64,000 nt of DNA from Dehalococcoidia bacterium (GTDB lineage: Bacteria > Chloroflexota > Dehalococcoidia > Lucifugimonadales > UBA3495). The stretch lies in NCBI GenBank assembly GCA_965232815.1, contig OZ247427.1:3609602-3673601 (forward strand), written 5' to 3'. Below, in pieces: positions 525 to 55,059 of this stretch. Positions within the stretch are counted from its first letter, which is position 1, and each line of letters opens with the position of its first letter. The position numbers were made by a program, and so were the translations under genes. The notes under the pieces were generated by a model. It did not search any database. It was not told where the DNA came from and worked only from the letters and a program-made list of their open reading frames with translations.

Positions 525-1358
525 ATGGCAGACTCGCAGCGACTCGACGGTAAGGTCGCCCTCATCACCGGCGGCGGCCGCGGCATCGGCCAGGCCATCG
601 CCCGCGCCTACGCCGCCGAGGGCGCGAATCTGGCCCTCGCCGCCCGCACCGACGCCGAACTCCAGGAGACCGCCCAGGGTATCCGCGATCAATTCGGCTC
701 CGATGTCATCACCGTTCTGACCGACGTAACCGACCGCGCCCAGGTGGACAACGCCGTCGCACGGACCATCGATCACTTCGGCGTCATCGACACCCTCGTG
801 AACAACGCCGGCAACTCAGGCCAGATTGGCCCGCTCTGGACCCTCGATCCCGATCGCTGGGCCAACACCATATCAATCCACATCCTCGGCACCTACTACG
901 GCTGCCGCGCTGCCATCCCCCACATGCTCGAGCGCGGCAGCGGCCGCATCGTCAACATGTCCGGCGTCGGCGGACCCAACGACACCTCCTACGACGCCGC
1001 CAAGATCGCCATCGTCAACCTCACCGAGAACCTCAGCGTCGAGTTGGCCGGCGCCGGCATCACCGTCAACGCCATCAGCCCCGGCTCCATCCACACCCGC
1101 ATGTGGGAGGAGGTCCGCGACATGGCCTACGAAGCCGGCGACATGGAGATGTACGAAAAAGGCGTCCAGGTAACCTCGGGCGGTGGCGCATCCATCGAGC
1201 GCGCCGCAGAACTCGCCGTCATGCTCGGCAGCGACCAGTGCGGCAACCTGTCCGGCCGCCTCATCCGCGCCAACCTGGACACCTTCGAAGACATCCCGGC
1301 CAACGTCGACGCCATCATGGCCGCCGACACCTACCTCCTCCGCCGCGTCAACCCCTAA
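525..1358 (+). CDS. SDR family oxidoreductase
   Basis: 277-aa ORF with the N-terminal Rossmann motif KVALITGGGRGIGQAIA and NNAG, typical of classical short-chain dehydrogenases. GGGAGA RBS lies upstream of the ATG. Confidence 0.9.
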   Translation: MADSQRLDGKVALITGGGRGIGQAIARAYAAEGANLALAARTDAELQETAQGIRDQFGSDVITVLTDVTDRAQVDNAVARTIDHFGVIDTLVNNAGNSGQIGPLWTLDPDRWANTISIHILGTYYGCRAAIPHMLERGSGRIVNMSGVGGPNDTSYDAAKIAIVNLTENLSVELAGAGITVNAISPGSIHTRMWEEVRDMAYEAGDMEMYEKGVQVTSGGGASIERAAELAVMLGSDQCGNLSGRLIRANLDTFEDIPANVDAIMAADTYLLRRVNP

Positions 1359-1481: not shown

Positions 1482-1602
1482 GCATCGTCGTTCCCAGTCC
1501 GTCTGAGCCGCATGCAATCTCGTCGAAACAGCAGGGCATCGTGTGCCGCGCAGGTCGCCAAGTCGCGCCGACCCTTCCGTTGACCAAGCATACGCGCGTG
1601 AG

Positions 1603-2928
1603 CTAATTGTCCCCCGGCTCACCCACCACCGCAGCAGCAGCCAGCGACGGATGCGTCGGCGGCCTCGCCAGCAGCAGCGCCGCTGCCGTCAAAACCCCCA
1701 GCGCCGCGTAGATGATGAACGCGATTCCGTAACCACCCGCCATGTGGTAGACCAACCCCGACGCCACCGCGCCTATCGCCTGACCCAGCGACGTGAACGG
1801 CTCCGTCACCCCGCGTATCGTCCCCAACGACTGCCGCCCGAAGAAGTTCGCGTACGCCACCGGCGGCACCACCAGGATTCCCGCCACTGCGATCCCGAAC
1901 AGGCCCGCCGCCAGATAGGTCAGCAGCACCGTGTCCGCGACCACGAAAATCGCGCACGCCACCGCCATCACCAGCGCGACAATCGCGTAGGTGTACGACA
2001 CCCTCAGTTGCTCCAGTACGCGACCCCACAGCAGGCTCCCGATGCCCGTGCCCAACGCGTTGATCACGATGCTGAACTGCGACAGCGCCAGGTCAATCCC
2101 CTTGGACCGCAACAGGTCGGCCTGATAGGTATTGGTGCCCGACTGCAGCAGGAACAAAAAGCCGGTCCCCAACGCCAGTACCCATAGGCCCGGTGTCCGC
2201 AGTGCCTCCCGCGTCGTCCATTCAATCCCTGATTCAGCAGCCTGCGCGTCCGGCGCAGCCGCGGTCTCTGCCGCCTCCGCGAGATCGTCCGGATTATCGC
2301 CATCCGGCAGCAATCCCACGTCCTCCGGCCGTTGCGCGATCAGCAACGACGCCGGCCCCAGCGCGACGACGTACACCATCAGACCCAGCACTATCCAGGC
2401 CGTTTCCCATCCCCAGACCACGCTGACCCACGTCGCCACCATCGGGAAAACCACCATGCCCCCCGAGTGAGACAGGAACAATAGCCCCGTCGCTCGTCCC
2501 CGCTGCCGCACAAACCAGCGTCCGACCACAGTCGCCGGCCCCACATTCAACGGACTGCTGAACATGATCCGCCCGATCGCCAGCGCCGCGTAAAAAATGG
2601 CGATATGCACCGACAGCCACGCCATCGCCATCGTGCTGATGCCGATGATGATGATCCCCAGCACCAGCACCACCCGCGCGCCATACCTGTCTATCGCCCA
2701 ACCCACGGGCGGGGAGGCCCCCGTAGCGAGCAAGCCGCCCACTGCCGCCGCGCCCCCGATCAATGCCCGGCTCCAGCCGGTGTCGTCGGCAATCAGCGGC
2801 ACAAACACCGCAAACGTCAGGCTCCCGGCGGCATTCCGCACGAACATGCTGCTGCCGGCCGATCCCAGCACGACCCAGCCATAATAAAACGGCAACCGCC
2901 GCGACAAATATCCAATCAGTATGTGCAT
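1603..2928 (-). CDS. MFS transporter
   Basis: 441-aa highly hydrophobic ORF with about 12 predicted TM segments and a central hydrophilic loop. It begins MHILIGYLSRRLPFYYGWVVLGS. Confidence 0.85.
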   Translation of the reverse strand: MHILIGYLSRRLPFYYGWVVLGSAGSSMFVRNAAGSLTFAVFVPLIADDTGWSRALIGGAAAVGGLLATGASPPVGWAIDRYGARVVLVLGIIIIGISTMAMAWLSVHIAIFYAALAIGRIMFSSPLNVGPATVVGRWFVRQRGRATGLLFLSHSGGMVVFPMVATWVSVVWGWETAWIVLGLMVYVVALGPASLLIAQRPEDVGLLPDGDNPDDLAEAAETAAAPDAQAAESGIEWTTREALRTPGLWVLALGTGFLFLLQSGTNTYQADLLRSKGIDLALSQFSIVINALGTGIGSLLWGRVLEQLRVSYTYAIVALVMAVACAIFVVADTVLLTYLAAGLFGIAVAGILVVPPVAYANFFGRQSLGTIRGVTEPFTSLGQAIGAVASGLVYHMAGGYGIAFIIYAALGVLTAAALLLARPPTHPSLAAAAVVGEPGDN

Positions 2929-48128: not shown

Positions 48129-48204
48129 TGGTGGGCCGTGTGGGGGTCGAACCCACGACACCCGGATTAAAAGTCCGGTGCTCTACCAACTGAGCTAACG
48201 GCCC
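48129..48204 (-). tRNA. tRNA-Lys (TTT)
   Basis: Hand-folded: acceptor GGGCCGT/ACGGCCC, D-arm GCTC-AGTTGGTA-GAGC, anticodon stem CCGGA/TCCGG with loop CTTTTAA, T-arm GTGGG-TTCGACC-CCCAC, encoded CCA. 76 nt. Confidence 0.9.
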
Positions 48205-48336: not shown

Positions 48337-48453
48337 TCTGGTGGTTCAAGCGGGGTGGTCCCACCCGTTCCCATCCCGAACACGGAAGTGAAACGCCCCA
48401 GCGCCCACGATACTGCTCTGGTGACGGAGTGGGAAAATAGGTCACCGCCGGGA
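48337..48453 (+). rRNA. rrf: 5S ribosomal RNA
   Basis: Contains GGTCCCACC..CCCGAAC..GAAGTGAAACGCC..AGCGCC..GAT..GGGAAAATAGG, collinear with bacterial 5S. Helix I pairs ctggtggt with accgccgg. End coordinates are good to a few nt. Confidence 0.9.
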
Positions 48454-51469: not shown

Positions 51470-52606
51470 ATGGCTAGGCGTTTGCTCAAGGAATTAGAAA
51501 GGTCGTACGGGTTCGACGAAGTCGCCATCGTTCCGGGCGACGTCACCATAAACCCGGAGATGGCCTCCACTCAGATGAGCATCGGGCCTTTCTCTTTCGA
51601 CGCGCCAGTAATCGCCTCCGCGATGGACGGTTCAGTCTCCCCGCGCTTCGCAACCTTGATGCACGAAATGGGCGGTTTGGGCGCCCTCAACGGCGAGGGC
51701 CTCTACACCCGCTACCATGACCCCTATTCGGTCCTGGAAGAGATCATCTCCATGGACCAGAGCGAGGTCACCGAATATCTCCAGGAGGTCTATAGCGAAC
51801 CCGTCCAGGAAAACCTGATCGGTGAGCGCGTCCAGGAAATCAAGCAGTCCGGCGCCATCGCTGCCATCGCATTCACGCCGCAAACCACCAAGCACCTTTC
51901 CCCTCTTGCCGTCGAAGCCGGTGCGGACATCATCATAGTCCAGTCCACCGTAACTACCGCCCGGCACATGTCGCGCAGTTACCGGGGCCTGATATTCGCC
52001 GAGCTTATCGAGAGCCTGAAAGTTCCCGTCGTCGTCGGCAACTGCGTCAGCTACAACGTCGCCAGCGAACTCATGGAAACCGGTATCGATGCCGTACTCG
52101 TGGGTGTCGGTCCAGGCGCAGCCTGCACCACCCGCGAAGTCACTGGCGTCGGCGTCCCCCAGGTTACGGCCACCCTCGAGTGCGCCGCGGCCCGCGAGGA
52201 CTATTTCGAACGCACGGGGCGCTACGTCAGCATCATTACCGACGGCGGATTGCGCACCGGCGGCGACGTCTGCAAGGCCATGGCCAGCGGCGCGGACGGT
52301 GTCATGTTGGGCACCCCCTTTGCCCAGGCCGCCGAAGCCCCCGGCCGCGGCTATAACTGGGGAATGGCCAACGCTCACCCTGAACTCCCCCGGGGAACCC
52401 GCATCAACGTCGGAACCAAGAGCACTCTCAAACAGTTGATGCACGGACCCAGCAGCGTAACCAACGGCACGCAGAACCTCGTCGGCGCACTGCGCGTCGC
52501 CATGGGCATGTGCGGCGCTCACACCGTGCGCGATTTCCACAAAACCGAAATGGTGGTCGCCCCCGCCATAAAGACCGAGGGCAAACACTACCAGATGATG
52601 GGATAG
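51470..52606 (+). CDS. GuaB3-type IMP dehydrogenase-related protein (no CBS domains)
   Basis: [19 protein letters not shown]...PVIASAMDG...[20 protein letters not shown]...[16 protein letters not shown]. 378 aa and lacks the CBS pair. Confidence 0.85.
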
Positions 52607-52659
52607 TCTCTGACCCTGAACCCAGGGTACATCCATTGAAATCTGAACGGAGGATAGCG

Positions 52660-53199
52660 ATGACCACAGCGACAATCCAGATACTCGACCCGAGGCCGGA
52701 GCACAAAACTGCAGAGCGCGCCTCCGCAGGGCGGTTGCCGAGCTTGGCCGGAAAGACCATCGGCCTGCTGGAAAACACCAAATTCCATTCCGACAACTTC
52801 TTGCAGGAACTGCAGGTGATCCTCGAAGAGGAATACGCGGTCGAAAAGGTCGTCTACCTCAAGAAGTTCAGCTTCAGCGCTCCCTGCTCCGATGAGACCA
52901 TCGAAGAGCTTGTGGATCAGTGCGATGCGGTGGTGCACGGAATCGCGGATTGAGGAAGCTGCACGGCGTGGGGTCTCCACGACACAGTTATCACCGAAAG
53001 CCGCGGCGTTCCCTCAGTGAGCGTCATCACCGAAAGCTTCACCCGAGCCGCGCACGCGCGTGCGTCCTCGCTGGGCATGCCCACGGTCCAAATCCTGGCG
53101 CTACCCAGCCCACTTGCTCCGCGCTCGATTCCCGAAGTCAGGCAGATGGCCCACGAGTACATCGGGCAGATCGCAGATATGCTCACCAACGGAGCATAG
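52660..53199 (+). CDS. Probable selenoprotein, 'UGSC' motif family (in-frame TGA at 52951-52953 read as Sec)
   Basis: ORF 52660-52953 (...QCDAVVHGIAD) and ORF 53017-53199 share a frame, with no other stop between them. Read-through gives ..HGIAD-U-GSCTAWGLHDTVITESRGVPSVSVITESF..TNGA*, 179 aa. GGAGG RBS lies 6 nt before ATG 52660, and a SECIS-like hairpin starts 8 nt after the TGA. Confidence 0.7.
52959..52987 (+). promoter_or_regulatory. SECIS-like stem-loop
   Basis: ctg-cac-ggcgtgg-GGTCT-ccacgac-a-cag. The apical stem cgtgg/ccacg has loop GGUCU about 21-25 nt after the UGA, a position compatible with bacterial SECIS elements. Confidence 0.5.
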
Positions 53200-53230: not shown

Positions 53231-53989
53231 ATGACCCTCAGGGTTGTCAACCGGAATGTTCAATGGGCTACGCCTCGGTCGAAGCGTAGCCCTGATATTG
53301 TGAGTAGCATCTCGAATCTCTCACCGGACGTCGTTTGCCTCACGGAAACCAACGAAAACCTTTTGTCCGATTTGGGCGGCCACACCATCTGCTCGAAGCC
53401 AGACTACGGCCACAAGATCGTGAAAGGTCGCCGCAAGGTGATGCTGTGGTCAGCAGAGCCTTGGCGGGACATAGACTGCATCGGCGACTATGATCTGCCA
53501 CCCGGGAGGTTCGTATCCGGGGTAACCAAGACCCCCATCGGCGAAACCATGCTAATCGGGGTGTGCATTCCTTGGTCCGGATCTAGGACACGGCGGTTCA
53601 GCGGGCCTCAACGTCAATGGCAAGACCACGAAGAGTACTTGGACGTGCTGACCACCCTCCTCTCGCGCATAGATGCCTGCAGCGTGGTGGTGTTGGGCGA
53701 TTTCAACCAGGCCATCGGTCAACGCACCAACGTGCCGGTACGGCTGCGGGACAAGTTGCAAGCTGCCTTTTCACCGCGCTTTGACATCCCCACCGCTTTG
53801 CTCAACCACCATGGCAAATCCTGCATCGACCACATCGCCTTGGGCCCCGGCCTTTCGCACGACTCCTTGGACACCATCAGCCATATAGGTTCGTCCGGCC
53901 AACCACTTTCCGACCATTTCGGCGTCACCGCCACCCTTACGACGCAAACCGAGCCAATCTCCAAACATTCGGAAGAGTACGGTAAATGA
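53231..53989 (+). CDS. Endonuclease/exonuclease/phosphatase (EEP) family protein
   Basis: VVCLTETN, VVLGDFNQ, CIDHIAL and LSDHFGV are the EEP catalytic motifs, in order. 252 aa from ATG 53231. Visibly lower GC than its neighbours. Confidence 0.8.
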   Translation: MTLRVVNRNVQWATPRSKRSPDIVSSISNLSPDVVCLTETNENLLSDLGGHTICSKPDYGHKIVKGRRKVMLWSAEPWRDIDCIGDYDLPPGRFVSGVTKTPIGETMLIGVCIPWSGSRTRRFSGPQRQWQDHEEYLDVLTTLLSRIDACSVVVLGDFNQAIGQRTNVPVRLRDKLQAAFSPRFDIPTALLNHHGKSCIDHIALGPGLSHDSLDTISHIGSSGQPLSDHFGVTATLTTQTEPISKHSEEYGK

Positions 53990-55059
53990 CCATCAGCAAC
54001 CGCGCCCTGAGTTCCCGCCGCATCGACGTGCCGGATACCTACGACGCAATACAGGACTACTACGAAGAACAGGGTTGGACCGACGGGATGCCCGTCGTGC
54101 CTGCCACCGAAGAGGCTGTCCGCAGGATGCTCGGCCCGTGGGGCGAGGATCCGTCGCTGTCATTGGGCGTGGCCCAACCATCCAACGCCGAAGTTACCAT
54201 CGAAAAGGTCGCCGTCAACGCGGTGATGGCAGGCTGCCGCCCGGAGTTCTTCCCCGTAGTCGTAGCCTGCGTCCGGGCTGCCTTGCAGGGACCCTTTAAC
54301 CTCGCCGGCTGCCAGGCCACCACCGGCGGCGCCGCTCCCGTCGTAATCGTCAACGGCCCCATCGCCGAACGTCTCGGAATCAACGGCGACTCCGGCGCCT
54401 TCGGGCCCGGCTACCGCGCCAACGCCACCATCGGACGTGCCCTCCGCCTGTTCGTGCGCAACGTTGCTGGCCTCATCATCGGCGATATGGACAAGGCAAC
54501 CCTCGCCATGCCGGGCCGCTACTCCTTCTGTTTCGCCGAAAACGAATCTCGCAGCCCTTGGGAACCCCGGCACGTCGAGTTGGGCTACGATCCCGAGGAC
54601 AGTCTGGTCACCCTGCACTCCATTCGCGCCTTCTACCCCGTCATGGAAACCACCGTCTCCCGCGGCATCGAGGTTCTGAACACCCTGGTACAGGCCACCC
54701 GCGCTACCGGGTTCTCCAACTACTATCAGATCGGCACCGGGGCCCAGGTGACCCTCGTCCTGAGCCCGGAACATGCCGCCGAAATCGCCGCTGATGGGTT
54801 GAGCAAAAAAGACGTACGCGAGTACATCTACGCCAATGCCCGCATGTCCATCGAGGAACTCTCCGGCCTGGGACATTGGGGCAACCGCAACTACCCGGCT
54901 TGGATCGACGACAGCAAACCCGATACCATGGTGCCCATCGCACCGCAGGCCGATGATATTGTCGTCGTCGTTGCCGGGGGCGACGGGCGCCATTCCGCCT
55001 GGCTGGCCGGCTGGGGCGTGACCCGCGTCGTTACCCAAAAGATAGAAATCCCCGGGTAA
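53986..55059 (+). CDS. Conserved hypothetical protein (357 aa)
   Basis: Start overlaps the EEP stop (ATGA). Non-repetitive, with motifs YYEEQGWTDGMPVVPATEE, AVNAVMAGCRPEF and NLAGCQATTGGAAPVVIVNGP. No family name recalled. Confidence 0.7.
   Translation: MTISNRALSSRRIDVPDTYDAIQDYYEEQGWTDGMPVVPATEEAVRRMLGPWGEDPSLSLGVAQPSNAEVTIEKVAVNAVMAGCRPEFFPVVVACVRAALQGPFNLAGCQATTGGAAPVVIVNGPIAERLGINGDSGAFGPGYRANATIGRALRLFVRNVAGLIIGDMDKATLAMPGRYSFCFAENESRSPWEPRHVELGYDPEDSLVTLHSIRAFYPVMETTVSRGIEVLNTLVQATRATGFSNYYQIGTGAQVTLVLSPEHAAEIAADGLSKKDVREYIYANARMSIEELSGLGHWGNRNYPAWIDDSKPDTMVPIAPQADDIVVVVAGGDGRHSAWLAGWGVTRVVTQKIEIPG

Follow-up and report, generated by a model that had tools for sequence, protein, structure and literature searches.

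A UGSC family gene with an in-frame UGA codon and a candidate SECIS hairpin in a Dehalococcoidia genome

Insertion of selenocysteine (Sec) in bacteria relies on a hairpin, the selenocysteine insertion sequence (SECIS), which binds SelB carrying Sec-tRNA(Sec), and G23 and U24 in the apical loop are important for SelB binding. The "UGSC-containing protein" is a computationally defined selenoprotein family for which a thioredoxin-like fold was proposed and a "UGSC/Unknown_1" fusion was recorded (Zhang and Gladyshev, PMC2398784). In the Global Ocean Sampling (GOS) data, UGSC was one of the selenoprotein families of highest abundance, with counts of 255 Sec forms and 21 cysteine (Cys) forms (PMC2398784). 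Reviews from 2022 and 2026 list UGSC without a function (PMC9312934, PMC13188914), and the latter, which cites the family model NF041046, reports no member as experimentally characterised (PMC13188914). Here we describe a UGSC gene at positions 52660 to 53199 of a 64-kb stretch of contig OZ247427.1 from a Dehalococcoidia bacterium (the whole stretch is called the window, and coordinates are those of the window). An earlier reading of the window made from the letters alone (the sequence-only reading) had interpreted two open reading frames (ORFs) as one 179-residue selenoprotein. That interpretation is supported below by family models, by the TGA codon of 80 orthologues, by selection on both sides of the UGA, by Cys in the homologous column, and by a conserved hairpin.

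An in-frame UGA in a UGSC family gene

The gene comprises the following features.

52649-52653, plus strand: Shine-Dalgarno-like GGAGG, 6 nt before the ATG at 52660 (read from sequence)
52660-53199, plus strand: a single coding sequence for a 179-residue UGSC family selenoprotein with the motif Sec98-Gly-Ser-Cys101, TAG stop included (very probable; from translation, family models and comparative data)
52951-52953, plus strand: in-frame UGA, very probably read as selenocysteine at residue 98 (TGA in orthologues, Cys in Cys-form homologues)

The N-terminal half of the gene consists of 97 codons that end in ...DQCDAVVHGIAD and is followed by TGA at 52951-52953. As the sequence-only reading had stated, the frame remains open past the TGA, and translation confirmed 81 further sense codons (GSCTAWGLHDTVITESRGVPSVSVITESF...TNGA) before TAG at 53197-53199. 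The TGA is the sole interruption of the frame, and the predicted product of 97 + 1 + 81 = 179 residues has a size of about 19 kDa and the recoded junction ...HGIAD-U-GSCTAWGLHDTVITESR. The GGAGG that had been reported upstream of the ATG was likewise found. The mechanical ORF list cuts the gene into 52510..52953 and 53017..53199. TGA is the stop codon of 15 of the 34 longest nonoverlapping ORFs of the window, dnaE included, and thus UGA is not reassigned genome-wide.

Family scans were performed with the window protein in which U was replaced by C. The protein scored 137.1 bits against NCBIfam NF041046, "UGSC family (seleno)protein" (curated cutoff, 125; model positions 2 to 147 of 147), and 172.7 bits against Pfam PF24696, "UGSC family" (cutoff, 25; model positions 1 to 171 of 172). 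Both matches span the UGA, and therefore neither half alone is a family member. Moreover, the window protein carries the U/C-G-S-C motif in the defining column, and a Pfam scan at an E value of ≤1 returned UGSC plus one chance-level match and nothing else. The family label named by the sequence-only reading is thus a real one, and NCBI already applies it to members from Frankia. An exhaustive search of representative sequences returned 855 UGSC clusters at 50% identity, many of which were cut exactly before the Sec column. We conclude that the window gene belongs to a curated family, which computational studies have described since the 2000s, and that its recognition was correct but not novel.

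A scan with one genome per GTDB species yielded 80 orthologous loci, all from metagenome-assembled genomes (MAGs) assigned to Dehalococcoidia, SAR202, or Chloroflexota, which together with the window gave 81 loci. Both halves aligned in all 80 loci at 64 to 92% protein identity. The codon at the UGA position was TGA in 80/80, with no instance of TAA, TAG, or any sense codon, and GSCTAWG followed in every case, such that UGSCTAWG was present in 81/81 loci. No further stop was found between codons −88 and +76 in any of the 81 loci. Moreover, the ratio of nonsynonymous to synonymous substitution rates (dN/dS; Nei-Gojobori, 600 random pairs) was 0.131 in the N-terminal half and 0.146 in the C-terminal half. 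The similar ratios on the two sides indicate that the segment past the UGA is translated and that purifying selection acts on it with the same strength as on the upstream segment.

The column between the two halves was also occupied in homologues that lack the UGA. Two Cys-form relatives obtained in a protein search have D/N-C-G-S-C-T-S-W at the junction, and when about 40 Cys-form proteins were aligned, the N-terminal half stopped one column before CGSC, the C-terminal half opened at GSC, and the column between them was Cys in all of them. At the nucleotide level, the codon at the Sec column was TGC or TGT in the Cys forms (L091 to L095) but TGA in the Sec forms. Furthermore, about 19 more 50%-identity clusters were cut exactly before the Sec column, and TGA was found in every one with retrievable DNA. 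The alignment that the sequence-only reading had recommended therefore places Cys exactly at the UGA column, and the homologues that it had said might end there do not: the Cys-form relatives are single proteins, and the family models cross the UGA.

Public gene calls are consistent with another explanation, in which the locus is two separate genes or a pseudogene, the first product ends after 97 residues at the UGA, and the downstream 81 codons are independent or decaying. Gene callers give exactly this arrangement: among the proteins found in the search, 23 are about 99 residues long and end in ...CDAVVHGIAD, and several others are C-terminal fragments called from internal GTG or ATG codons, and the window itself has an in-frame GTG at 53017. 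The database entries found for the Dehalococcoidia orthologues (P0001 to P0023) are all either of about 99 residues ending at the UGA or C-terminal fragments from internal starts, and none is annotated as a selenoprotein. Separate genes, however, do not account for the stretch of 11 codons that separates the UGA from any possible restart and encodes a peptide (GSCTAWGLHDT) that is invariant in the 81 loci and aligns with the CGSCTSW core of the Cys-form proteins. Nor do they account for family models that each require both halves, or for a downstream half that is as constrained as the upstream half and free of second stops, and a pseudogene would not be expected to retain TGA exclusively across 80 species. 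We conclude that separate genes or a pseudogene are effectively refuted and vanishingly improbable.

Two further observations were made among the homologues. One C-terminal UGSC fragment, P0034 (131 residues), extends beyond the usual stop by about 90 residues, into a tail rich in Cys (...CLCGCGEDKNPKSRFKQGHD...), for which loss of the stop codon or a fusion in that genome may be responsible. In L090, two UGSC paralogues lie on one contig, at 548-841 (minus strand) and 1501-1788 (plus strand).

The hairpin downstream of the UGA

Two versions of the hairpin are distinguished below.

52965-52983, plus strand: candidate SECIS core hairpin, stem nucleotides 15-21 and 27-33 and loop nucleotides 22-26, counted from the U of the UGA
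52959-52987, plus strand: the extended hairpin of the sequence-only reading, which includes a lower ctg/cag helix (weakly supported)

In the core hairpin, the stem strands GGCGUGG (52965-52971) and CCACGAC (52977-52983) flank the loop GGUCU (52972-52976). The sequence and loop that had been described were present, but the upper seven-position stem is not perfect and contains a G16/A32 mismatch. The earlier statement that the hairpin begins 8 nt after the UGA holds when counted from the U, but only 5 nt intervene after the UGA itself. The extended hairpin survived in its upper part, which is conserved in the 81 loci, but not in its lower helix (ctg at 52959-52961 and cag at 52985-52987), which was poorly kept: positions 7-9, 36, and 39 varied without clear covariation, and position 36 was A, C, or G.

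The GGUCU loop had been likened to the apex of the SECIS of Escherichia coli fdhF. The fdhF SECIS sequence was located inside fdhF in 5419 of 5426 E. coli genomes, and both the sequence and the position of the pentamer were verified, as GGUCU occupies nucleotides 22-26 from the U of the UGA in fdhF and in the window hairpin alike. Each element lies inside the coding sequence with its hairpin a few nucleotides past the UGA, and the 11-nt spacing between UGA and stem in the window is that of the experimentally defined fdhF element. The two differ in that fdhF has a bulged U at nucleotide 17/18 (at 18 in its computed fold) and a long lower helix, whereas the window element has an unbulged stem of 5 bp extended by a G/A mismatch and another G-C pair, and a lower helix is not conserved in its clade.

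Comparison of the 81 loci indicated constraint on the hairpin at the nucleotide level. Nucleotides 16-35 after the U (GCGUGGGGUCUCCACGACAC) were identical across all loci, and the hairpin is therefore conserved in the TGA-carrying orthologues (80/80); the sequence-only reading had named the lack of such conservation as a refutation. Synonymous positions 6, 15, 36, 39, and 42, which flank the core, varied freely. The whole gene has 94 degenerate codon columns in which the amino acid is conserved, and only 6 of them used a single codon, namely, GAU at codon −1 and GCG, GGU, CUC, CAC, and GAC at codons +5, +7, +8, +9, and +10, and the last five correspond to the hairpin core. Moreover, the synonymous substitution rate (dS) was 0.26 in codons +1 to +11 and about 1.0 to 1.3 elsewhere in the gene. 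The GAU at codon −1 was considered as a general recoding context and rejected, as distant Sec forms use GAC or GAU; the invariant GAU is specific to the Dehalococcoidia clade.

Because the stem is invariant within the clade, Sec-form genes of other lineages were compared. All had TGA, and all encoded G-x-C-T/V-S-W/Y...H-D. In 16 of the 17 distinct sequences, a stem of 7 bp (GUCGUGG/CCACGAC) was present in the register of the window hairpin, and the 5-nt loops were CUUGU, AUGGC, CUUGC, AUUGU, AUGGU, AUGAU, or AUUAU. Across 18 distinct sequences, 92% of stem cells were paired, versus 19 to 49% when the 3′ partners were slid by one to three columns. Two pairs changed in a compensatory manner, G18-C30 to A-U in L086 and G21-C27 to C-G in L088, and the observed pairing level together with two compensatory pairs was reached by 4 of 500 shuffles. 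A separate observation concerns L087, a TGA-containing fusion-type UGSC gene with the loop CUUGC rather than the GGUCU of the stand-alone gene. The accession of its contig (DAOUJZ01...) neighbours those of Dehalococcoidia MAGs in the set, and one SelB may have to accept both loops.

Folding and pattern searches were less telling. In isolation, 29 to 40 nt around the element had the hairpin as their minimum free energy (MFE) fold, with a 5-bp CGUGG/CCACG stem plus the lower helix. Across the 1.6 Mb of related loci, a scan for UGA followed by a GGUC-loop hairpin in an open frame picked up about 17 additional hits, all sporadic, with about 0.7 expected per window, and it found no second candidate in the window itself. 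With only sporadic hits, the scan was rejected as independent evidence for Sec decoding, and folding energy was rejected as evidence too because the z-scores were not significant; comparative tests were used instead. The feature exceeds chance through comparative evidence, not thermodynamics.

Several observations weigh against a Sec gene with a SECIS hairpin. The stability of the hairpin was not above that of shuffled sequence (z = −0.4 to +0.6), and the hairpin was absent from the MFE structure of 60-nt and 101-nt stretches. One divergent Sec form, L107, pairs at only 3 of 7 positions in this register. The stem overlies the conserved peptide (S/A)-W-x-x-H-D, the codons of which give much complementarity on their own, and two independent Cys-form lineages with the same peptide retain 5/7 and 6/7 pairs, such that the control comparing Cys with Sec forms is only suggestive. 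The sequence-only reading had proposed a covariance-model check: Rfam scans at gathering thresholds and at an E value of ≤10 gave no SECIS hit, and the only match over 52850-53100 was a chance-level snoRNA at an E value of 2.6, a null that says little, as short bacterial SECIS elements of this type may lack an Rfam model. Finally, no tRNA-Sec was found with ARAGORN in the 64-kb window or the 80 related 20-kb loci, and no SelA, SelB, or SelD homologue was found there (1.6 Mb of flanks; tblastn with E. coli queries). The sole tblastn hit, in L070, was ThiL and was rejected. Since the window covers only 64 kb of the genome, the absence of Sec machinery from the window and loci is uninformative rather than negative.

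Some of these points would also fit an invariance of 52966-52985 that has nothing to do with a SECIS but reflects codon preference on a conserved peptide or an element of the opposite strand, with Sec inserted through another signal. In its favor are the pairs retained by Cys-form genes, the lack of covariation within a clade in which the stem is constant, and minus-strand ORFs that overlap the region (52588-52980 and 52917-53189). Such a preference, however, would have to act at the recoding site only, as the single-codon columns all fall within codons −1 to +10, and it would have to freeze 4-fold and 6-fold degenerate sites (GCG, GGU, and CUC) while nearby Gly, Ser, Thr, and Val residues use three to four codons each. 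It also leaves aside that distant Sec forms alter loop and stem bases yet keep pairing in register, compensatory changes included, and that the spacing and the loop position are those of the fdhF element. We consider an invariance unrelated to a SECIS highly improbable.

Another possibility is that the UGA is read through without selenium, by a near-cognate Trp or Cys tRNA or a suppressor while the hairpin slows termination, such that residue 98 is Cys or Trp. The empty search for Sec machinery in the window and related loci and a hairpin that is short and thermodynamically unremarkable are compatible with such decoding. If Cys were acceptable at this position, however, some TGC or TGT would be expected among the orthologues, and 80/80 have TGA; the family as a whole likewise strongly favors UGA over Cys codons in the GOS data (PMC2398784). 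Moreover, the loop has the sequence of the SelB-binding loop of fdhF and lies equally far from the UGA, the U-x-x-C site is typical of Sec, and a Sec/Cys pair at homologous positions is the standard selenoprotein signature (PMC9312934). Indirectly, SelA and SelB have been reported in most sponge-symbiont bins, which come from various phyla (PMC5649159), and the names of the MAGs behind several related loci hint at sponge-associated sampling. Read-through without selenium is thus extremely improbable.

We conclude that 52660-53199 is, with high confidence, a genuine Sec-encoding UGSC gene, one gene that encodes a selenoprotein of 179 residues in a Chloroflexota genome of the Dehalococcoidia/SAR202 type. 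By the established bacterial mechanism, the hairpin, with its seven-position stem and GGUCU loop, would bind SelB with Sec-tRNA(Sec) during translation, and SelB, rather than release factor 2, would act on the UGA in the A site and deliver selenocysteine there. The explanation as a whole is also well supported, if held a little less firmly because it includes the SelB/SECIS mechanism.

Predicted fold and the proposed partner gene downstream

The closest full-length Cys form, P0136, which is 39% identical to the window protein, was modeled with AlphaFold2 (AF2) from a 50-sequence alignment that included both halves of the window protein. The model (mean predicted local distance difference test score [pLDDT], 84; predicted template modeling score [pTM], 0.77) contains five beta-alpha units, and CGSC lies at the N terminus of helix 101-116, right after strand 92-96. 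A Foldseek search of the PDB with the model returned only flavodoxin, WrbA, AzoR, and TIR-like folds, at template modeling (TM) scores of 0.4 to 0.58, and no sequence-related solved structure for UGSC was found in the PDB. The thioredoxin fold proposed in the literature (PMC2398784) was not supported by the model of this 39%-identical proxy or by the Foldseek search, and the UGSC product is predicted to be a small flavodoxin-like alpha/beta domain instead. Sec98-Gly-Ser-Cys101 would then sit at the N terminus of a helix after a beta-strand, the usual place of a low-pKa redox nucleophile, where it could be activated by the helix dipole. A cycle between selenol/thiol and a Sec-Cys selenenylsulfide would fit this placement.

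Some Cys-form UGSC proteins are longer. In P0033, P0091, P0095, P0146, and relatives from Actinomycetota, proteins of about 280 residues (encoded, for example, at 7001-7861 in L108 and 7001-7846 in L109) have an extra N-terminal domain with a C-x-x-C motif. The extra domain is weakly NifU-like (Pfam PF01106 on some members; PDB 2z51 at an E value of 0.09), which points towards possible Fe-S or thiol chemistry.

The genes and RNAs around the UGSC gene are the following.

53986-55059, plus strand: conserved partner gene, 357 residues, with an invariant Cys84, fused to UGSC in other lineages (synteny, phmmer)
~53231-53989, plus strand: endonuclease/exonuclease/phosphatase family gene, between UGSC and the partner in the window
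51470-52606, plus strand: GuaB3-family gene related to inosine monophosphate dehydrogenase (TIGR01304, 431 bits), directly upstream of UGSC
48337-48453, plus strand: 5S rRNA gene, standing alone and divergent to tRNA-Lys(UUU)
48129-48204, minus strand: tRNA-Lys(UUU), syntenic in most related loci

A gene for the 357-residue protein was found downstream of UGSC and on the same strand in 80/80 loci. The gap between the two genes was 31 to 149 nt (directly adjacent) in 17 loci and about 700 to 850 nt in 50, the window included. The endonuclease/exonuclease/phosphatase family gene that occupies the gap in the window was detected in 37/80 loci and looks like an insertion in one subclade. The 357-residue protein itself had no Pfam or NCBIfam match even at an E value of ≤10. 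Its homologues (phmmer E values of 1e-72 to 1e-13) instead turned up as the C-terminal 350 residues of UGSC fusions of about 550 to 590 residues, which occur in many lineages and in both Cys and Sec forms, the partner being the read-through continuation of the Sec-form fusion genes. In Frankia sp. QA3 and Mycobacterium avium, the partner is a gene that overlaps the UGSC stop codon, and the pair would be translationally coupled. The partner family is very large (7700 matches among 8000 candidates scored), and among the matches listed, all are hypothetical proteins. Cys84 was invariant in 29/29 aligned sequences. An AF2 model of the partner (pLDDT, 83; pTM, 0.86) had no convincing PDB neighbor by structure, and no PDB relative was found by sequence. 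Class I fumarate hydratase was returned with a probability of 0.97 but was rejected, as the TM score was about 0.25 and the root mean square deviation about 18 Å.

The link between UGSC and its partner by fusion and gene order covers at least two phyla, and such conserved fusion and adjacency argue that the two act together. In such a two-part enzyme, UGSC would probably be the small subunit, with a redox or catalytic role. The points that count against this fuller picture are that the fold comes from a 39%-identical Cys proxy and not from the window protein, and that the redox role of the U-G-S-C centre, though reasonable, and the cooperation with the partner are both things that we infer.

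Organic-acid or CoA-ester catabolism is a hallmark of SAR202. Gene neighbors of UGSC elsewhere encode a coenzyme A (CoA) transferase, acyl-CoA dehydrogenases, an AMP-ligase, an HpcH/HpaI aldolase, a ChsH2-like hydratase, and an IlvD/Edd dehydratase. In the actinobacterial loci from M. avium (L109, 4579-11578) and Frankia (L108, 5451-12371), the UGSC-partner pairs lie near acyl-CoA dehydrogenases, a family III CoA-transferase, and an AMP-dependent ligase, and also near TetR regulators, a nitroreductase, and a thiolase-like protein that accompanies a ChsH2-like hydratase. Such surroundings are those of organic-acid or CoA-ester catabolism. A more specific assignment, in which UGSC is the small Sec subunit and the 357-residue protein the large subunit of an uncharacterised two-part enzyme, for which a role in such catabolism would fit, is tentative and falls short of likely.

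The GuaB3 gene lies upstream of UGSC in 78/80 Dehalococcoidia loci, but neither the Frankia nor the M. avium UGSC locus contains it, and it was therefore rejected as a family-wide functional partner; its adjacency is more likely inherited synteny. No match to 23S or 16S rRNA was found anywhere in the 64-kb window.

Annotation should treat the locus as one gene for a 179-residue selenoprotein. Since the public orthologue gene calls found are all cut to about 99 residues, this lineage, which is abundant and both marine and sponge-associated, is counted too rarely among selenium users. The conserved 350-residue partner and the prediction of a flavodoxin-like fold are new here and offer experimental handles on a family that ranks with the most abundant selenoproteins of aquatic metagenomes, with the partner being the most useful lead. 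The Cys-form pairs of Frankia and M. avium would be easier to handle than uncultured SAR202.

Comparison with known systems

Within the UGSC family (NF041046/PF24696), the window member shares the stand-alone size of about 180 residues, the U-G-S-C column, and a full-length match, and it has Sec, as do most environmental members. It differs in that its clade has A for S after the motif (UGSCTAW), which results in the G/A mismatch of the SECIS stem, and in the GGUCU loop of the clade, in place of which CUUGU, AUGGU, and others occur in other lineages. The predicted flavodoxin-like fold of the Cys homologue likewise departs from the thioredoxin-like fold suggested for the family in the literature.

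Glycine reductase (GrdA/GrdB) and D-proline reductase (PrdB) provide a functional analogy only, in that a Sec-containing polypeptide works with a larger partner; PrdB also has a U-x-x-C motif, like UGSC (PMC2398784). No similarity to UGSC was found for either system, whether by Pfam at an E value of ≤1 or among the top 50 PDB fold matches, which included no Grd or Prd chain.

A further comparison is with the small U-x-x-C or C-x-x-U redox selenoproteins of marine metagenomes, which resemble thioredoxin (Trx), peroxiredoxin (Prx), SelW, or AhpD. Like UGSC, they have Sec two residues from Cys, Cys-containing homologues, and an aquatic or marine abundance, and like UGSC they have been identified by computation only. 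UGSC differs in its predicted fold, which is a five-stranded flavodoxin-like alpha/beta domain and not the thioredoxin fold. Moreover, UGSC differs from them in being tied by fusion and gene order to a 350-residue partner, which suggests that it is an enzyme subunit rather than a free-standing thiol-disulfide oxidoreductase.

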